Shown here piece by piece: positions 549 to 7,919 of a stretch of 7,919 nt of DNA. Below the pieces are notes generated by a model. It was given only the letters and a program-made list of their open reading frames with translations, made no database searches and had not been told where the DNA came from. Origin of the DNA: a virus (lineage: Duplodnaviria; Heunggongvirae; Uroviricota; Caudoviricetes); the IMG/VR virus record IMGVR_UViG_2698536312_000008. The stretch is one strand, 5' to 3'. Every line of letters starts with the position of its first letter. The first letter of the stretch is position 1. Both the position numbers and the translations under genes were made by a program.

Positions 549-2448
549 TATGATGAGTGCTGTCACAACAGCATTACAGCCCCTGATAAGGGCATTGCCG
601 GTGACGCCAGTTGAATGGGCTGATCAAAATTATTATCTGCCTAAAGAATCTTCATATGGTGAGGGAGAATGGAAAACGCTGCCGTTCCAGGTCGCCATTA
701 TGAACTGTATGGGTAACGACCAGGTTCGCACGGTTAACCTGATTAAATCTGCCCGTGTTGGCTATACAAAGATGTTGCTGGGGGTGGTCGGGTATTTTAT
801 TGAGCATAAATCACGAAACAGTCTGCTTTTTCAGCCCACGGATTCTGCCGCTGAAGATTTTATGAAGTCTCACGTGGAGGCGACGATTCGGGATGTGCCA
901 TGCCTGAAAGACCTTTCCCCATGGCTGGGTCGTAAACATCGTGATAATACCCTCACGCTGAAACGTTTTTCATCGGGCGTGGGCTTCTGGTGCCTGGGCG
1001 GGGCTGCCGCTAAAAACTACCGTGAAAAATCCGTGGACGTGGTCTGCTATGACGAACTTTCCTCGTTCGAACCGGATGTCGAAAAAGAGGGGTCGCCAAC
1101 CCTGCTTGGGGATAAACGTATTGAGGGCTCTGTATGGCCCAAATCCATTCGCGGCTCGACGCCTAAAATCAAAGGCACCTGCCAGATCGAAAAAGCGGCC
1201 AACGAGTCGGCGCATTTTATGCGTTTTTATGTGCCCTGCCCACACTGTGGGGAGGAGCAGTATCTGAAATTTGGCGATGAGTCCACGCCTTTTGGGCTTA
1301 AATGGGAGAAGGACAGTCCCGAAAGTGTTTTCTACCTCTGTGAACATCATGGCTGCGTGATCCATCAGTCTGAACTGGACCAGAGCAACGGGCGGTGGAT
1401 CTGTGAAAACACGGGCATGTGGACCCGTGACGGTCTGACGTTTTTCAGCGCTGCGGGTAATGAAATTCCGCCGCCGCGCTCCATCACGTTCCATATCTGG
1501 ACGGCGTACAGTCCGTTTACCACCTGGGTACAGATAGTCTATGACTGGCTGGATGCACTGAAAGATCCCAACGGCGTGAAAACCTTTGTGAACACCACGC
1601 TGGGCGAGACCTGGGAAGAGGCCGTGGGCGAAAAACTTGATCACCAGGTGCTGATGGATAAGGTCGTGCATTATACGGCGGCGGTACCTGCCCGGGTGGT
1701 TTATCTGACGGCGGGCATTGACTCGCAGCGAAACCGTTTTGAGATGTATGTCTGGGGATGGGCACCGGGAGAGGAAGCTTTTCTGGTGGATAAAATCATC
1801 ATTATGGGGCGTCCTGATGAGGAAGAGACGCTGTTACGTGTGGATGCGGCGATCAACAAAAAATACCGCCATGCGGATGGCACCGAGATGACCATTTCCC
1901 GTGTCTGCTGGGACACCGGGGGGATCGATGGCGAAATCGTTTATCAGAGGTCAAAAAAACACGGTGTTTTCCGGGTGCTGCCGGTAAAAGGTGCATCTGT
2001 TTATGGCAAGCCGGTGATCACCATGCCAAAAACCCGCAATCAGCGGGGCGTGTATCTGTGCGAAGTGGGGACGGACACCGCAAAAGAAATTCTCTATGCC
2101 CGTATGAAAGCCGATCCCACGCCTGCGGATGAAGCCACGTCGTATGCCATCCGTTTTCCTGATGAGCCGGAGATTTTTTCGCAGACAGAGGCGCAGCAAC
2201 TGGTGGCGGAAGAGCTTGTGGAGAAGTGGGAAAAAGGAAAGATGCGTCTGCTGTGGGATAACAAAAAGCGGCGTAACGAAGCGCTGGACTGCCTGGTGTA
2301 TGCCTACGCGGCATTACGTGTGTCCGTGCAACGCTGGCAGCTTGATCTGGCTGTACTGGCAAAATCCCGGGAAGAAGAGACGACCCGGCCACCCCTTAAA
2401 GAACTGGCAGCGAAGCTGTCCGGAGGAGTGAATGGTTACAGTCGCTGA
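520..2448 (+). CDS. A: Terminase large subunit (lambda gpA-like; packaging ATPase plus cos endonuclease)
   Basis: Near-colinear similarity to recalled lambda gpA over the whole length: MNIS..., VEWAD.NYYLPKES.Y.EG.W.TLPFQ, Walker-A-like KSARVGYTKMLLGV, Walker-B-like VDVVCYDE, CPHCGEEQYLKFGD, TFVNTTLGETWE, AGIDSQ, WDTGGID, KKRRNEALDC. The ORF track starts at 463, but the homologous N-terminus MNISEQQ begins at the ATG at 520. The stop is TGA at 2446-2448. Length is about 642 aa, versus about 641 aa recalled for lambda gpA. Confidence 0.93.
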   Translation: MNISEQQLNNMMSAVTTALQPLIRALPVTPVEWADQNYYLPKESSYGEGEWKTLPFQVAIMNCMGNDQVRTVNLIKSARVGYTKMLLGVVGYFIEHKSRNSLLFQPTDSAAEDFMKSHVEATIRDVPCLKDLSPWLGRKHRDNTLTLKRFSSGVGFWCLGGAAAKNYREKSVDVVCYDELSSFEPDVEKEGSPTLLGDKRIEGSVWPKSIRGSTPKIKGTCQIEKAANESAHFMRFYVPCPHCGEEQYLKFGDESTPFGLKWEKDSPESVFYLCEHHGCVIHQSELDQSNGRWICENTGMWTRDGLTFFSAAGNEIPPPRSITFHIWTAYSPFTTWVQIVYDWLDALKDPNGVKTFVNTTLGETWEEAVGEKLDHQVLMDKVVHYTAAVPARVVYLTAGIDSQRNRFEMYVWGWAPGEEAFLVDKIIIMGRPDEEETLLRVDAAINKKYRHADGTEMTISRVCWDTGGIDGEIVYQRSKKHGVFRVLPVKGASVYGKPVITMPKTRNQRGVYLCEVGTDTAKEILYARMKADPTPADEATSYAIRFPDEPEIFSQTEAQQLVAEELVEKWEKGKMRLLWDNKKRRNEALDCLVYAYAALRVSVQRWQLDLAVLAKSREEETTRPPLKELAAKLSGGVNGYSR

Positions 2449-2638
2449 ACTGCAGGCGCTGCGTCAGGCGCGCCTTGATTTATTAACCGGTAAACGGGTG
2501 GTGTCTGTCCAGAAAGATGGTCGCAGAATTGAATATACGGCGGCTTCTCTGGATGAGCTTAACCGGGCGATCAATGATGCGGAGTCGGTACTGGGGACAA
2601 CCCGGCGTCGCCGTCGTCCGCTGGGAGTGAGGTTATGA
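2432..2638 (+). CDS. W: Head completion / head-tail joining protein (lambda gpW-like)
   Basis: 68 aa, the same length as lambda gpW as recalled, with the shared core LLTGKRVVSVQKDGRRIEYTAASL and an RRRRP motif near the C-terminus. GGAGGAG SD at 2423-2429, ATG at 2432. Overlaps the gpA 3' end by 17 nt. Its TGA stop overlaps the ATG of the portal gene (ATGA). Confidence 0.9.
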   Translation: MVTVAELQALRQARLDLLTGKRVVSVQKDGRRIEYTAASLDELNRAINDAESVLGTTRRRRRPLGVRL

Positions 2639-4227
2639 AACGAACGCCTGTCCTGATTGATGTGAACGGCGTTCCGCTTCGGGAGAGCCTCAGCTACAAC
2701 GGGGGCGGCGCAGGATTTGGCGGGCAAATGGCGGAGTGGTTGCCACCCTCGCAGAGTGCCGATGCGGCCCTGCTGCCCGCGTTGCGTCTGGGGAATGCCC
2801 GGGCAGATGATCTGGTGCGCAATAACGGGATAGCGGCCAATGCGGTGGCCCTGCATAAGGATCACATTGTCGGGCATATGTTTCTTATCAGCTACCGTCC
2901 GAACTGGCGCTGGCTGGGGATGCGGGAGACCGCGGCAAAAAGTTTTGTCGATGAGGTGGAGGCGGCCTGGTCAGAATACGCAGAAGGGATGTTTGGTGAG
3001 ATCGACGTGGAAGGGAAACGCACGTTTACGGAATTTATCCGTGAAGGTGTGGGCGTTCATGCGTTTAACGGCGAAATCTTTGTGCAGCCGGTCTGGGATA
3101 CGGAAACCACGCAGTTATTCCGTACGCGTTTTAAAGCCGTGAGTCCGAAACGGGTGGACACGCCAGGACACGGTATCGGGAACCGTTTTCTGCGGGCCGG
3201 TGTGGAGGTCGATCGATATGGCCGTGCCGTTGCGTACCATATCTGTGAGGATGATTTTCCTCGCTCCGGGAGTGGACGATGGGAACGGATCCCGCGTGAA
3301 CTACCCACCGGGCGTCCGGCCATGCTGCATATTTTCGAGCCGGTGGAGGACGGGCAGACCCGTGGGGCCAATCAGTTTTACAGCGTCATGGAACGGCTGA
3401 AGATGCTCGATTCCCTGCAGGCAACACAGCTTCAGTCGGCCATAGTGAAGGCGATGTATGCAGCGACGATTGAAAGTGAACTGGATACCGAAAAGGCCTT
3501 TGAATATATCGCCGGTGCGCCGCAGGGGCAGAAGGATAATCCGCTTATTAATATTCTGGAGAAGTTCTCCAGCTGGTATGACACGAATCACGTGACGCTG
3601 GGCGGTGTCAAAATTCCGCACCTTTTCCCTGGTGATGATCTGAAACTGCAGACAGCGCAGGATTCAGACAATGGATTTTCGGCGCTTGAACAGGCGCTGC
3701 TGCGGTATATCGCCGCCGGTCTTGGCGTTTCCTACGAACAGTTGTCCCGTGATTACTCGAAGGTCAGTTACTCAAGTGCCCGCGCCTCCGCCAATGAGTC
3801 GTGGCGCTATTTTATGGGGCGGCGAAAATTTATTGCGGCCCGACTGGCCACGCAGATGTTTTCCTGCTGGCTGGAAGAGGCACTTCTTCGGGGGATTATT
3901 CGTCCGCCACGGGCTCGTTTTGATTTTTATCAGGCGCGATCAGCCTGGTCACGGGCAGAGTGGATTGGTGCCGGAAGAATGGCCATTGACGGGCTCAAGG
4001 AAGTCCAGGAATCAGTGATGCGCATTGAGGCCGGACTGAGCACGTATGAGAAAGAGCTGGCGCTGATGGGCGAGGATTATCAGGACATTTTCCGCCAGCA
4101 GGTCAGGGAATCTGCAGAGCGGGAAAAAGCCGGACTCTCACGCCCGGTGTGGATAGCGCAGGCGTATCAGCAGCAGATAGCGGAGAGTCGCAGGCCGGAA
4201 GAGGAGACAACACCACGTGAGACGTAA
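2635..4227 (+). CDS. B: Portal protein (lambda gpB-like)
   Basis: 530 aa with extensive colinear identity to recalled lambda gpB: GGG.GFGGQ, GNARADDLVRNNG.AANA, HIFEPVEDGQTRGAN.FYSVME, LQSAIVKAMYAATIESELDT, LLRYIAAGLGVSYEQLSR, ARASANESW.YFMGRRKF, WIG.GRMAIDGLKEVQE, EAGLSTYEKE. SD GGAGTGAGG upstream, ATG at 2635. Confidence 0.94.
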   Translation: MKRTPVLIDVNGVPLRESLSYNGGGAGFGGQMAEWLPPSQSADAALLPALRLGNARADDLVRNNGIAANAVALHKDHIVGHMFLISYRPNWRWLGMRETAAKSFVDEVEAAWSEYAEGMFGEIDVEGKRTFTEFIREGVGVHAFNGEIFVQPVWDTETTQLFRTRFKAVSPKRVDTPGHGIGNRFLRAGVEVDRYGRAVAYHICEDDFPRSGSGRWERIPRELPTGRPAMLHIFEPVEDGQTRGANQFYSVMERLKMLDSLQATQLQSAIVKAMYAATIESELDTEKAFEYIAGAPQGQKDNPLINILEKFSSWYDTNHVTLGGVKIPHLFPGDDLKLQTAQDSDNGFSALEQALLRYIAAGLGVSYEQLSRDYSKVSYSSARASANESWRYFMGRRKFIAARLATQMFSCWLEEALLRGIIRPPRARFDFYQARSAWSRAEWIGAGRMAIDGLKEVQESVMRIEAGLSTYEKELALMGEDYQDIFRQQVRESAEREKAGLSRPVWIAQAYQQQIAESRRPEEETTPRET

Positions 4228-5722
4228 TCTTTCACACATTATTGCCGCAGCATTCAATGAACCGCTGCTTCTGGAGCCCACCTATGCGCGGGTTTTCTTT
4301 TGCGCGCTCGGGCGCGAGATGGGGGCAGCAAGTCTTTCGGTACCACAACAACAGGTACAGCTTGATGCTCCCGGAATGCTGGCTGAAACGGACGAGTACA
4401 TGGCCGGAGGTAAACGACCGGCCCGTGTTTACCGGGTGGTGAACGGTATTGCTGTACTGCCGGTGACCGGCACGCTGGTGCACCGGCTGGGCGGTATGCG
4501 GCCATTTTCCGGAATGACAGGCTATGACGGCATTGTCGCCTGTCTTCAGCAGGCAATGGCAGATAGCCAGGTGCGGGGCGTACTGCTGGACATTGACAGT
4601 CCGGGCGGGCAGGCCGCCGGCGCGTTTGACTGCGCTGACATGATTTACCGCCTCCGTCAGCAGAAGCCGGTCTGGGCACTGTGCAATGACACGGCCTGTT
4701 CTGCAGCCATGCTGCTGGCGTCGGCCTGCTCCCGACGGCTGGTTACCCAGACATCCCGTATCGGCTCCATTGGCGTGATGATGAGCCATGTCAGCTATGC
4801 CGGTCATCTGGCGCAGGCCGGTGTGGATATCACGCTGATTTATGCCGGGGCGCACAAGGTGGATGGCAATCAGTTTGAAGCGTTGCCGGCAGAGGTTCGC
4901 CAGGATATGCAGCAGCGGATTGATGCGGCGCACCGGATGTTTGCCGAAAAAGTGGCGATGTATACCGGGTTGTCTGTGGATGCGGTCACGGGAACAGAGG
5001 CCGCCGTTTTTGAAGGTCAGTCCGGCATTGAGGCCGGGCTGGCGGATGAATTAATCAATGCGTCGGATGCCATCAGCGTGATGGCTGCGGCGCTGAACAC
5101 TCATGATACAGGAGGCACTATGCCGCAATTAACTGCAACGGAAGCTGCCGCGCAGGAGAACCAGCGAGTGATGGGGATCCTGACGTGTCAGGAAGCGAAA
5201 GGACGTGAACAGCTTGCCACGATGCTGGCAGGACAACAGGGCATGAGCATTGAACAGGCCCGGGCGATTCTGGCCGCGGCGGCACCACAGCAGCCGGTGG
5301 CATCCGCGCAGAGTGAAGCCGATCGCATTATGGCGTGTGAAGAAGCGAAAGGTCGTGAACAACTGGCGGCAACGCTGGCGGCGATGCCGGAGATGACGGT
5401 GGAAAAAGCACGCCCGATCCTGGCGGCTGCACCACTGGCGGATGCCGGGCCCTCACTTCGTGATCAGATCATGGCCCTGGATGAGGCAAAAGGGGCAGAA
5501 GCGCAGGCTGAAAAACTGGCGGCCTGCCCGGGAATGACCGTGGAGAACGCCCGGGCTGTGCTGGCTGCGGGATCAGGTAAGGCCGAACCGGTCTCTGCAT
5601 CCACAACCGCCCTGTTTGAACATTTCATGGCGAATCATTCACCGGCAGCGGTGCGGGGTGGCGTGTCACAGACGTCAGCAGACGGTGATGCGGACGTGAA
5701 AATGCTCATGGCCATGCCATGA
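4217..5722 (+). CDS. C: Head maturation protease / prohead protein (lambda gpC-like, ClpP/SppA S49-type serine peptidase) with an expanded C-terminal scaffold domain
   Basis: Colinear match to recalled lambda gpC: AFNEPL.LEP.YARVFFCAL, NGIAVLPV.GTLV, SGMTGY.GI, FDCAD.I, KPVWAL.ND..CSA..LLAS, SRRLVTQT.R.GSIGVMM.H, ITLIY.G.HKVDGN, MFA.KV..YTGLSV, EAGLADEL.N..DAI.VM. The start is inferred as GTG at 4217: there is no in-frame ATG near the homologous N-terminus, and GAGGAG lies at 4201-4206. Overlaps the portal gene's 3' end. About 501 aa versus about 439 aa for lambda C; the excess is the repeat expansion listed separately. Confidence 0.88.
   Translation: MRRNLSHIIAAAFNEPLLLEPTYARVFFCALGREMGAASLSVPQQQVQLDAPGMLAETDEYMAGGKRPARVYRVVNGIAVLPVTGTLVHRLGGMRPFSGMTGYDGIVACLQQAMADSQVRGVLLDIDSPGGQAAGAFDCADMIYRLRQQKPVWALCNDTACSAAMLLASACSRRLVTQTSRIGSIGVMMSHVSYAGHLAQAGVDITLIYAGAHKVDGNQFEALPAEVRQDMQQRIDAAHRMFAEKVAMYTGLSVDAVTGTEAAVFEGQSGIEAGLADELINASDAISVMAAALNTHDTGGTMPQLTATEAAAQENQRVMGILTCQEAKGREQLATMLAGQQGMSIEQARAILAAAAPQQPVASAQSEADRIMACEEAKGREQLAATLAAMPEMTVEKARPILAAAPLADAGPSLRDQIMALDEAKGAEAQAEKLAACPGMTVENARAVLAAGSGKAEPVSASTTALFEHFMANHSPAAVRGGVSQTSADGDADVKMLMAMP
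5120..5722 (+). CDS. nu3: Scaffolding protein (lambda Nu3-like), nested in-frame in the 3' part of the gpC gene
   Basis: An in-frame ATG at 5120 is preceded by AGGAGG at 5110-5115, a strong SD with a short spacer. This is the equivalent position to where lambda Nu3 starts inside C (lambda ...GGRMTKETQ... versus here ...GGTMPQLTATE...). The downstream sequence carries the Nu3 motif IMGIL.C.EA.GRE....LA..PGMTV..AR.ILAAAP. Predicted product is about 200 aa. Confidence 0.6.
   Translation: MPQLTATEAAAQENQRVMGILTCQEAKGREQLATMLAGQQGMSIEQARAILAAAAPQQPVASAQSEADRIMACEEAKGREQLAATLAAMPEMTVEKARPILAAAPLADAGPSLRDQIMALDEAKGAEAQAEKLAACPGMTVENARAVLAAGSGKAEPVSASTTALFEHFMANHSPAAVRGGVSQTSADGDADVKMLMAMP
5165..5572 (+). 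repeat. Three tandem, diverged, in-frame copies of the scaffold motif (about 114-156 bp each) inside the gpC/Nu3 coding sequence
   Basis: Protein-level repeats: RVMGILTCQEAKGREQLATMLAGQQGMSIEQARAILAAAAP / DRIMACEEAKGREQLAATLAAMPEMTVEKARPILAAAP / DQIMALDEAKGAEAQAEKLAACPGMTVENARAVLAAG. Copies start at about 5165, 5321 and 5459. The DNA copies are clearly related but not identical (for example gaagcgaaaggacgtgaacagcttgcc versus gaagcgaaaggtcgtgaacaactggcg). Confidence 0.65.
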
Positions 5723-5758
5723 AGTCAGTGCTGACCATCAATATGAGGTTTTAACAAA

Positions 5759-6106
5759 ATGGTGACGAAAACCATCACTGAACAGCGTGCGGAAGTACGT
5801 ATTTTTGCTGGTAATGATCCGGCTCATACCGCCACAGGCAGCAGCGGGATTTCTTCTGCAACACCGGCTCTGACGCCCCTGATGCTGGATGAAGCCACCG
5901 GGAAACTGGTGGTCTGGGATGGACAGAAAGCCGGTAGTGCGGTTGGCATACTGGTACTGCCGCTTGAAGGCACAGAGACGGTGCTGACCTATTACAAGTC
6001 GGGGACCTTTGCGACGGAGGCAATCCGCTGGCCTGACAGTGTGGATGAACACAAAAAGGCAAATGCCTTTGCCGGCACAGCCCTGAGTCACGCGGCTCTG
6101 CCGTAA
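5759..6106 (+). CDS. D: Head decoration protein (lambda gpD-like)
   Basis: 115 aa. Matches recalled lambda gpD: NDPAHTAT, TPLMLD, KLV.WDG, AVGIL, YKSGTF, WP....DE.KK..AFAGTA. ATG at 5759, stop at 6104-6106. Confidence 0.92.
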   Translation: MVTKTITEQRAEVRIFAGNDPAHTATGSSGISSATPALTPLMLDEATGKLVVWDGQKAGSAVGILVLPLEGTETVLTYYKSGTFATEAIRWPDSVDEHKKANAFAGTALSHAALP

Positions 6107-6113
6107 CACGTTA

Positions 6114-6135
6114 TCAGGCCACCATGGTGGCCTGA
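6114..6135. promoter_or_regulatory. Perfect 22-bp palindrome (TCAGGCCACCATGGTGGCCTGA) in the D-E intergenic region; predicted RNA stem-loop followed by a U-rich stretch
   Basis: Direct reading: 6114-6135 equals its own reverse complement, giving a 9-bp GC-rich stem with a CAUG loop, followed by ctgatttctgaatg. Lambda has a GC-rich hairpin plus T-run at the equivalent D/E junction (GCCGCCTGTGCGGCTTTTTTT, from recall). Confidence 0.55.
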
Positions 6136-6163
6136 CTGATTTCTGAATGAAAGGAACTGATTT

Positions 6164-7192
6164 ATGGGATTGTTTACGACCCGCCAGTTACTCGGTTATA
6201 CCGAACAAAAAGTTAAATTTCGTGCGCTGTTTCTGGAACTGTTTTTCCGCCGTACGGTGAATTTCCACACCGAAGAGGTGATGCTGGACAAAATTACCGG
6301 AAAAACGCCGGTGGCGGCCTATGTCTCCCCGGTCGTTGAAGGAAAAGTGCTGCGTCATCGTGGGGGTGAAACCCGCGTGTTACGTCCGGGCTACGTCAAG
6401 CCGAAACACGAATTTAATTACCAGCAGGCGGTTGAACGCCTTCCCGGTGAAGATCCGGCTCAGCTGAACGACCCGGCCTACCGTCGTCTGCGTATCATCA
6501 CTGATAACCTCAAACAGGAAGAGCACGCTATTGTGCAGGTGGAAGAAATGCAGGCGGTGAATGCCGTGCTGTATGGCAAATATACGATGGAAGGAGACCA
6601 GTTCGAGAAAATTGAAGTCGATTTTGGCCGATCGACGAAGAATAACATCATACAGGGTAGCGGTAAGGAGTGGTCAAAACAGGATCGTGACACGTTCGAC
6701 CCGACATATGATATCGACCTTTTCTGTGATCAGGCCAGTGGTCTTGTGAATATTGCCATTATGGACGGTACCGTCTGGCGTCTGCTGAATGGCTTTAAGC
6801 TTTTCCGCGAAAAACTGGATACCCGTCGCGGTTCAAATTCACAACTCGAAACGGCAGTGAAAGATCTGGGCGCAGTGGTATCCTTCAAGGGGTATTACGG
6901 CGATCTGGCTATTGTGGTAGCGAAAACGTCTTATGTGGCAGAGGACGGTACCGAAAAACGTTATCTGCCGGAGGGCACGCTGGTGCTGGGGAATACGGCG
7001 GCAGAGGGGATTCGTTGCTATGGAGCCATTAAGGATGCACAGGCGTTGTCTGAAGGAGTGGTGGCTTCTTCCCGTTACCCGAAACACTGGCTGACCGTGG
7101 GCGATCCGTCCTGTGAATTCACCATGACGCAGTCCGCGCCGCTGATGGTGCTGCCGGATCCGGATGAGTTTGTGGTGGTACAGGTGAAATAA
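6164..7192 (+). CDS. E: Major capsid protein (lambda gpE-like)
   Basis: 342 aa. Colinear with recalled lambda gpE: TT.QLL, FLRLFFR, YVSP.V.G.V.R.RGG, PGYVKPKHE, DPAYRR.RII, QVEEMQAV.AVL.GKYTM, KLDTRRGSNS.LETAVKDLG, GDVAIVV, GNT.A.G.R.YG.I.DA, RYPK.W.T.GDP..EFTM.QSAPLM.L.DPDEFV.VQ. AAGGA SD at 6151-6155, ATG at 6164. Confidence 0.95.
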   Translation: MGLFTTRQLLGYTEQKVKFRALFLELFFRRTVNFHTEEVMLDKITGKTPVAAYVSPVVEGKVLRHRGGETRVLRPGYVKPKHEFNYQQAVERLPGEDPAQLNDPAYRRLRIITDNLKQEEHAIVQVEEMQAVNAVLYGKYTMEGDQFEKIEVDFGRSTKNNIIQGSGKEWSKQDRDTFDPTYDIDLFCDQASGLVNIAIMDGTVWRLLNGFKLFREKLDTRRGSNSQLETAVKDLGAVVSFKGYYGDLAIVVAKTSYVAEDGTEKRYLPEGTLVLGNTAAEGIRCYGAIKDAQALSEGVVASSRYPKHWLTVGDPSCEFTMTQSAPLMVLPDPDEFVVVQVK

Positions 7193-7200
7193 TCCGTGAG

Positions 7201-7228
7201 CGGGGGCGAAATGCCCCCGTGTTTTTTT
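7201..7228 (+). terminator. Rho-independent terminator-like hairpin directly after the major capsid gene (stem CGGGGGC / GCCCCCG, loop GAAAT, then TGTTTTTTT)
   Basis: Direct reading: cgggggc-gaaat-gcccccg at 7201-7219, followed by tgttttttt at 7220-7228. It lies 9 nt after the gpE stop and upstream of the gpFI SD and ATG. Lambda carries an analogous hairpin at the E/FI junction (ATGGCCCTTCGGGGCCAT, from recall). Confidence 0.7.
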
Positions 7229-7243
7229 CACAGGGAGCTGGAT

Positions 7244-7612
7244 ATGGCAACAAAAGAAGAAAATCAGAAACGTCTTCGTGAACTGGCTGGTCTGCTGGGG
7301 CGCGAGGCGGATATGTCGGGGAGTGCTGCGGATATCGCACAGCGTGTGGCAGAGTGGGAAGAGGAGGTTTGCGCCTCGGAAAATGAAATCGCAGATGTTG
7401 ATGATACCGTTCATGAGCAGGCATGCAGGCACACCGGTGAGGATGACGTTGGTATTCTGGAACGTATCAGGCTTCTGAAGTGTTTTTACCTGTGCGGTGT
7501 TGACGATGAAACAGGTGAGCCTGTTGAGCATGTTGATGCTGGCAGAGTAATTCTGATGCCCCCCTCAGTGGCAAAAGACATGGTCAGGAGCGGAATGGCC
7601 GTTTATGCATGA
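7244..7612 (+). CDS. FI: DNA-packaging / head assembly accessory protein (lambda gpFI-like)
   Basis: The N-terminus MATKEENQKRLRELAGLLGRE...AADIAQRVAEWEEE resembles recalled lambda gpFI (MTKDELIARLRSLGEQLNRD...KEELALRVAELKEE), followed by an acidic central region. AGGGAG SD at 7232-7237, ATG at 7244. The ORF-track start at 7196 would translate through the terminator hairpin and is rejected. Stop TGA at 7610-7612. Confidence 0.8.
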   Translation: MATKEENQKRLRELAGLLGREADMSGSAADIAQRVAEWEEEVCASENEIADVDDTVHEQACRHTGEDDVGILERIRLLKCFYLCGVDDETGEPVEHVDAGRVILMPPSVAKDMVRSGMAVYA

Positions 7613-7919
7613 TTTTGAGAATTCCTTTGATGCTGCCCTTGCCGGGGTGGACAGAACGATTGTTGAAGTGATGGGGCTCTGTGCGCAGTTCACCTCGGGG
7701 GCACAGTGTGGCAGCGAAGTTCAGGGGGTTTTTGACGATCCGGAGTCGCTGGGGTTTGCCGGTAGCGGGGTCCGTATTGAAGGAAGCAGCCCGTCATTAT
7801 TTGTGCGGACGGATACGGTTCGTGCCGTGCGGCGTGGTGACACGCTGACCATTAATGGTGAGACATTCTGGGTGGATCGTGTTTCTCTGTCAACGCCACG
7901 ATGTTTGACCGTTATTTGC
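7605..7919 (+). CDS. FII: Head-tail joining protein (lambda gpFII-like), 3'-partial, continues past the window end
   Basis: Not in the ORF track because no stop falls in the window. Manual translation from the ATG at 7605 gives MHDFENSFDAALAGVDRTIVEVMG...VQGVFDDPESLGFAGSGVRIEGSSPSLFVRTDTVRAVRRGDTLTINGETFWVDRVS, which matches recalled lambda gpFII (MADFDNLFDAAIARADETIRGYMG...IRGVFDDPENISYAGQGVRVEGSSPSLFVRTDEVRQLRRGDTLTIGEENFWVDRVS). Overlaps the gpFI stop (ATGCATGA). Confidence 0.88.
   Translation, partial: MHDFENSFDAALAGVDRTIVEVMGLCAQFTSGAQCGSEVQGVFDDPESLGFAGSGVRIEGSSPSLFVRTDTVRAVRRGDTLTINGETFWVDRVSLSTPRCLTVIC

Follow-up and report, generated by a model that had tools for sequence, protein, structure and literature searches.

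The window, a stretch of 7,919 nt from a Caudoviricetes record (IMG/VR IMGVR_UViG_2698536312_000008), covers the left end of a head operon of lambdoid type, as judged from its list of open reading frames, and the C-terminal region of the 501-amino acid (aa) head maturation protease encoded in it contains three tandem units of 40–44 aa. These repeats are almost certainly the Tri boxes of the lambda-family scaffold domain, as annotated in the head gene operon of phage 21 (GenBank M81255). As an overall account, the known Tri box triplication in phage 21-type genes 5 and 6 (which correspond to C and Nu3 of lambda), combined with a mechanism in which the units serve as multivalent modules, is very likely the best explanation. 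The triplication is already known and is real but ordinary. Its discovery value is small, because the phage 21 record has shown it since 1993 and thousands of sequenced Escherichia coli prophages contain it. Beyond the “function unknown” annotation of 1993, we found no work in the literature that addresses unit copy number. The modest addition here is that a natural series of one to four copies, together with a confident prediction of a three-helix bundle, makes scaffold valency experimentally approachable, in a phage family where the mechanism of scaffold action is still poorly defined.

The protease/scaffold gene and its nested gene

The units lie in a gene that follows the portal gene and precedes the genes for the decoration and major capsid proteins, as in a lambda-type head operon, and that is collinear with both M81255 and the complete phage 21 genome (OL657228). 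The PHROG profile for the head maturation protease, phrog_53, matches the 501-aa protein with an E-value of 5e-227, and the Pfam model Peptidase_S49 (PF01343) matches residues 146–293 (E = 1.5e-35; 122.9 bits against a cut-off of 24.9). A nested start is predicted at 5120, where an in-frame ATG follows its own ribosome-binding site (RBS), as annotated for gene 6 of phage 21. The features of this gene are listed below, with unit bounds from a hidden Markov model (HMM) of the repeat and coding sequences (CDS) of M81255 for comparison.

4217–5722, plus strand: head maturation protease and scaffold domain gene (homologue of lambda C and phage 21 gene 5), 501 aa; GTG start, collinear with M81255 CDS 4572–6077
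4652–5095, plus strand: S49 (SppA/ClpP-like) serine peptidase domain, residues 146–293 (PF01343)
5110–5115, plus strand: AGGAGG RBS of the nested scaffold gene, read in the sequence; an RBS stands at the equivalent position in M81255 and OL657228
5120–5722, plus strand: predicted scaffold gene, nested in frame and encoding 200 aa, homologous to gene 6 of phage 21 and to lambda Nu3; ATG 4 bases past the RBS, equal to M81255 CDS 5475–6077
5156–5287, plus strand: unit 1, residues 314–357 (repeat HMM, 71–79 bits), overlapping the Tri1 box
5315–5434, plus strand: unit 2, residues 367–406 (repeat HMM), overlapping the Tri (Tri2) box
5456–5575, plus strand: unit 3, residues 414–453 (repeat HMM), overlapping the Tri3 box; Arg of KGRE replaced by Ala
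5576–5719, plus strand: non-repeated C-terminal tail, 48 aa (…LFEHFMANHSP…DVKMLMAMP), with near-invariant F166 and M170 in homologue alignment A1

The nested product is matched by the “head scaffolding protein” profile phrog_8399 at three stretches. By homology to lambda Nu3, it would act as a scaffold that prohead assembly requires, that the protease degrades and that the mature head no longer contains. A preliminary description of this DNA had taken the region for the scaffold, and the assignment is backed by synteny, by the nested gene with its AGGAGG, and by the annotation of phage 21 gene 6 and lambda Nu3.

Three units and the Tri boxes

Local alignment of non-overlapping unit segments gave pairwise scores of 108, 80 and 102, compared to a mean of ∼25 (standard deviation ∼5) for composition-preserving shuffles (z = 17.5, 11.9 and 15.3), and 0 of 2000 shuffles reached the observed score. 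The lambda-type Nu3 profiles phrog_8399, phrog_8940 and phrog_17040 each make three separate matches to the window protein, and the repeat HMM finds three units both in this protein and in phage 21 gp5. The bounds obtained in these ways fall within a few codons of those in the preliminary description, which had placed three tandem copies of a scaffold motif at 5165–5572. Across homologues, the unit follows the pattern I-M…(E)-A-K-G-R-E-x-L-A-x-x-L-A-x-x-P-G-M-T/S-x-x-x-A-x-x-I/L-L. The region is Ala-rich and no Pfam model covers it, which would suit a chance resemblance between low-complexity Ala/Glu/Gln-rich stretches. That reading is refuted by z-scores of 12–17, by the shuffles, by the triple PHROG matches and by the conserved position-specific pattern, and its probability is negligible.

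M81255, a 1993 record that we take to be that of Smith and Feiss (Gene 1993, 126:1–7), annotates three repeat_region features in gene 6, a “Tri1 box” at 5542–5645, a “Tri box” at 5682–5792 and a “Tri3 box” at 5823–5936, each with the note “function unknown; putative”. A constant offset of 355 nt transfers these to 5187–5290, 5327–5437 and 5468–5581 of the window, in the same frame, as confirmed by their translations, QEAKGREQLATMLAGQQGMSVEQARAILAAAAPQ (Tri1), IMVCEEANGREQLAATLAAMPEMTVEKARPILAASPQ (Tri) and IMALDEAKGAEAQAEQLAACPGMTVESARAVLAAGSGK (Tri3). The likeness to phage 21 genes 5 and 6 extends to the gene order (terminase, head completion, portal, protease/scaffold with nested gene, decoration, major capsid), to products of 501 and 200 aa, and to the GTG start, the internal RBS and the placement of the units at equal residues, while the window protein differs from phage 21 gp5 by 20 amino-acid changes, 11 of them in the gp6 part.

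The three units are not identical in build. Unit 1 has a longer first helix (VMGIL) and is the orthologue of lambda's single unit in the unit tree described below. Unit 3 reads KGAEAQA compared to KGREQLA, and the earlier statement that it had lost the GRE residues stands for the Arg, which is gone together with the next Leu, but not for the Gly and Glu, which are retained. Homologues from Salmonella, Trabulsiella and Providencia keep KGRE in unit 3, which confines the loss, among the sequences compared, to the phage 21 lineage.

Age of the duplication and selection on the units

The units share 53–66% identity in protein and 57–68% in DNA, and where residues are identical, about half of the codons still differ between units. 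Tandem Repeats Finder (TRF) returned no array. Units that are only 57–68% identical in DNA argue for an old duplication, as the preliminary description had held, and not for slippage or misassembly. The tandem arrangement, and nothing else, speaks for recent replication slippage or an assembly artefact; DNA divergence and the missing TRF array refute this origin, and the triple structure is also present in phage 21 (sequenced independently, by two methods), in 1866 E. coli genomes and in other genera, leaving it next to no probability. Compared to phage 21, the ratio of non-synonymous to synonymous substitution rates (dN/dS) is 0.17 for the repeat region and 0.21 for the protease domain, with values of 0.08–0.32 for the single units that rest on small counts. 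These low ratios indicate purifying selection on all three units, and hence conservation that acts at the level of the protein.

It is also highly improbable that the repeated DNA is a cis element, whether a minus-strand CII-site pattern, an antisense promoter or an RNA. The suggestion draws on OL657228, where two TTGYNNNNNNTTGY matches inside gene 6 are annotated as “CII binding site”, and both are present on the minus strand of the window, at 5125–5138 and 5359–5372. However, these two matches compare to 1.42 expected per window, and at least two were found in 82 of 200 shuffles; because the count is at chance, the annotation looks like an unsupported pattern match. A single match falls inside a unit, and the pattern is therefore not part of the repeat. 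The conservation at the protein level likewise speaks against a cis element, and there is no promoter-like site in 4900–5900, no Rfam family and no other DNA-level feature.

Comparison with lambda

Lambda gpC contains exactly one unit, at residues 357–399 (repeat HMM with filters off and domain E-values up to 1), in agreement with the single copy that the preliminary description had given for Nu3. Lambda gpC and gpNu3 (NC_001416) resemble the window proteins in pairing an S49 protease with a scaffold gene nested in frame behind a GGAGG RBS, and the lambda unit, IMGILNCEEAHGREEQARVLAETPGMTVKTARRILAAAP, is the orthologue of window unit 1. The two differ in having one unit versus three and in the Ser/Thr/Ala-rich linker before the unit, which is 36 aa longer in lambda, and their tails have no significant pairwise similarity (z = −0.3). 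A size excess of ∼60 aa had been put down to the repeats, and this holds only roughly. The window protein is a net 62 aa longer than gpC: gains of 96 aa (the second and third units and their linkers), 8 aa (the tail) and 1 aa (unit 1) are partly offset by the longer lambda linker and by 7 more residues in the N-terminal part of gpC.

The comparison also bears on where lambda nu3 begins. RefSeq gives it a 201-aa product from 5132, where no RBS is visible (cagtcccggATG). The lambda start equivalent to that of phage 21 gene 6 is gpC Met309, preceded by GGAGG (tcaggagggcgaATG), with a product of 131 aa, which is the length of the phrog_8399 profile. In the NC_001416 segment the two starts lie at 833 and 1043, respectively, and the window counterpart is at 5110–5122. 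The RefSeq start may be too far upstream.

Copy number across genomes

Among 5426 complete E. coli genomes, 1866 carry the three-copy gene and 3141 the one-copy lambda-type gene (both counted where at least 80% of the query was covered), while a four-copy variant is present in 104. The four-copy protein (E. coli STEC309, WP_096934546.1, 538 aa; segment 2128–3744) has the protease/scaffold architecture of the window protein, its first unit being lambda-like and the additional ones shorter. It differs in an exact period of 46 aa and in units that are 81–94% identical in amino acids and 75–81% in nucleotides. The much closer resemblance among its units than among those of phage 21 suggests a younger expansion, or homogenisation by gene conversion. 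In-frame two-unit forms of the 21-type gene (P0013, P0018 and P0022) were found solely in clusters of 1–3 member sequences. Their junctions lie at equivalent positions of two units (for example, MSVEQARPILAASP fuses units 1 and 2), consistent with unequal recombination between units or with collapse during assembly.

A phmmer search of 1.84 billion representatives at 50% identity gave 132 hits. Those of at least 380 aa have one unit in 30 cases and three in 1 (n = 31), and most of the shorter hits, which include many fragments and nested genes called on their own, have one unit, a few having two or three. One of the representatives, P0108 (258 aa, three units), has almost all Ala changed to Val and Arg to Cys, Trp or Tyr (e.g., EVRGYEVLVQMLVGQLGMSVVQVKFILVVV), and is probably a database artefact in which C-to-T converted (bisulfite-type) reads were assembled as native sequence. 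A scan of one genome per species, a sample biased by the search patterns, returned 23 loci. Three units were present in Escherichia albertii, E. coli, Shigella flexneri, Trabulsiella guamensis and Providencia alcalifaciens, two in Buttiauxella ferragutiae, and one in the other 17, which include Vibrio, Caulobacter, Hoeflea, Paracoccus, Cellvibrionaceae and Bryobacter. Two to four copies were observed almost exclusively in Enterobacterales, except for unplaced two-copy proteins. The preliminary description had proposed comparing repeat number among Nu3 homologues, and most relatives, like lambda, have one copy and not three.

In a neighbour-joining tree of the units, which is built from short sequences and indicative only, unit 1 of every multi-copy protein clusters with the one unit of lambda. 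The additional units fall into a clade of their own, marked by a first helix that is 3–4 residues shorter, and those of the four-copy variant cluster together. From the unit counts and this tree, a single copy is the common condition and probably the ancestral one. The gain of two more units by an Enterobacterales lineage, that of phage 21, Gifsy, Providencia and Trabulsiella, is old, a further lineage has four, and P0090 and P0150, with two copies each, seem to stem from a separate duplication.

Predicted structure of the unit

An AlphaFold2 model of a single unit (unit 2) consists of three helices, with a predicted local distance difference test score (pLDDT) of 91.1 and a predicted template modelling score (pTM) of 0.67. 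In a model of the whole Nu3-type protein the units have pLDDT values of 70–78 and the linkers fall below 60. Each unit is predicted to be an autonomous small three-helix bundle, joined to the next by flexible Pro/Ala/Gln-rich linkers. The closest structural neighbours of the unit model are the staphylococcal protein A domains, the UBA domain and domain III of RuvA, and the likeness is to independent protein-binding modules that at times occur in tandem.

An analogy in the likely working principle, and an analogy only, can be drawn to P22 gp8, phi29 gp7 and similar scaffolds, where a short helical motif of a mostly flexible scaffold transiently binds the capsid protein (PMC11922011). We found no sequence or fold similarity between the unit and the C-terminal helix-loop-helix of P22 gp8, and none with phi29 gp7 or other scaffolds of this kind; the unit here is an internal, repeated three-helix bundle. 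It is also not at the extreme C-terminus, as the P22-type motif is, since a tail of 48 aa follows it in the window and a tail of 39–67 aa follows the final unit in all 23 genomic loci examined. The P22 scaffold leaves the prohead in intact form, unlike the scaffold here, which is fused to a protease and predicted to be degraded by it.

A proposed multivalent scaffold and its alternatives

The lambda scaffold, Nu3, is required if the portal is to be incorporated, and the C protease removes it; its interactions with E, C, B and itself have been reported from yeast two-hybrid and genetic data, that with E from two-hybrid (PMC3224144). The units lie in the C-terminal region common to the protease and the nested scaffold protein, of which they are the best-conserved part across Proteobacteria, and the unit is the sole strongly conserved element of the lambda-family scaffold domain. 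We propose that each unit acts as a protein-binding module, through which the free scaffold (gp6) and the protease (gp5, with an identical C-terminus) would attach to the inner surface of the capsid shell as it assembles and/or to each other, and so be brought into the prohead. As three binding units would be present per chain, the scaffold would be multivalent, and the S49 protease would remove it after assembly. We put this multivalent capsid-binding mechanism at about even odds, with the capsid protein, the portal and the scaffold itself as candidate partners. The conserved, non-repeated tail is just as plausible a capsid contact.

A further and more tentative idea is that copy number from one to four forms a natural valency series of at least two independent origins, kept by selection, which tunes how many capsid subunits or other scaffold chains a single chain bridges, for example by replacing Nu3 dimerisation. 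The one- to four-copy versions stand in otherwise similar T=7-type head operons and are a ready series for relating scaffold valency to procapsid assembly. The preliminary description had gone on to suggest that copy number could affect prohead size, which finds no support. Three-copy phage genomes range from 42.9 kb (phage 21) to 54.4 kb (PhiR12_1) and so bracket the 48.5 kb of lambda, giving no sign of a change in capsid size.

Two other explanations accept the repeats as real and differ on what the units do. The units could be modules for scaffold-scaffold oligomerisation or portal recruitment, with the C-terminal tail contacting the shell. The self-association of lambda Nu3 and its requirement for portal incorporation (PMC3224144) point this way, as do the tail that every homologue keeps, with near-invariant F and M residues, and the location of the coat-binding motifs of other scaffolds (P22, phi29) at the chain terminus (PMC11922011). 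However, pairwise comparison of the tails of lambda and the window gave no significant similarity, while the unit is the best-conserved element of the scaffold domain across Proteobacteria, and we regard this division of labour as possible but less probable than capsid binding by the units. It would take still more to see the extra units as dispensable passengers, that is, as a tolerated old duplication, a spacer or a protease substrate with no effect on assembly. One unit suffices for lambda and most relatives, and the genome sizes of one-copy and three-copy phages overlap. Set against this are the purifying selection on all three units (within the small counts noted above), core residues that are unchanged in lineages as distant as Providencia and Trabulsiella, and the scarcity of two-copy deletion forms compared to the full gene in 1866 genomes, which together make the passenger explanation improbable.

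The head operon and its flanks

The remaining genes of the window, from the list of open reading frames, are as follows.

Window start: end of the small terminase subunit gene, then the large terminase gene
2432–2638: W-like head completion gene
2635–4227: portal gene (gp4 counterpart)
5759–6106: decoration protein gene
6164–7192: major capsid protein gene (gp7 counterpart)
After 7192: FI-like gene

The GTG start of the protease/scaffold gene overlaps the final 11 nt of the portal gene (4217–4227), as annotated for phage 21 genes 4 and 5, and M81255 mislabels the product of gene 4 as “head-tail preconnector gp5”. Positions 602–7365 align with M81255 (“Bacteriophage 21 head gene operon”) at 94.5% identity over 6770 nt, and the identity to OL657228 is equal. 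The closest matches among complete E. coli genomes are ∼98% identical to the window, and an E. albertii contig is 96.6% identical across 4.7 kb. On these matches to phage 21, E. coli and E. albertii, the window is assigned to a prophage of the Escherichia group with a phage 21-type head. Both ends of the window, 1–601 (the small terminase subunit region) and 7366–7919 (from the end of the FI-like gene onward, FI/FII), have no megablast-level alignment to phage 21, but such alignments exist to PhiR12-type phages and to many E. coli prophages. They are, by these alignments, mosaic joints on either side of a phage 21-type head module, and may mean a different cosB/small-terminase specificity.
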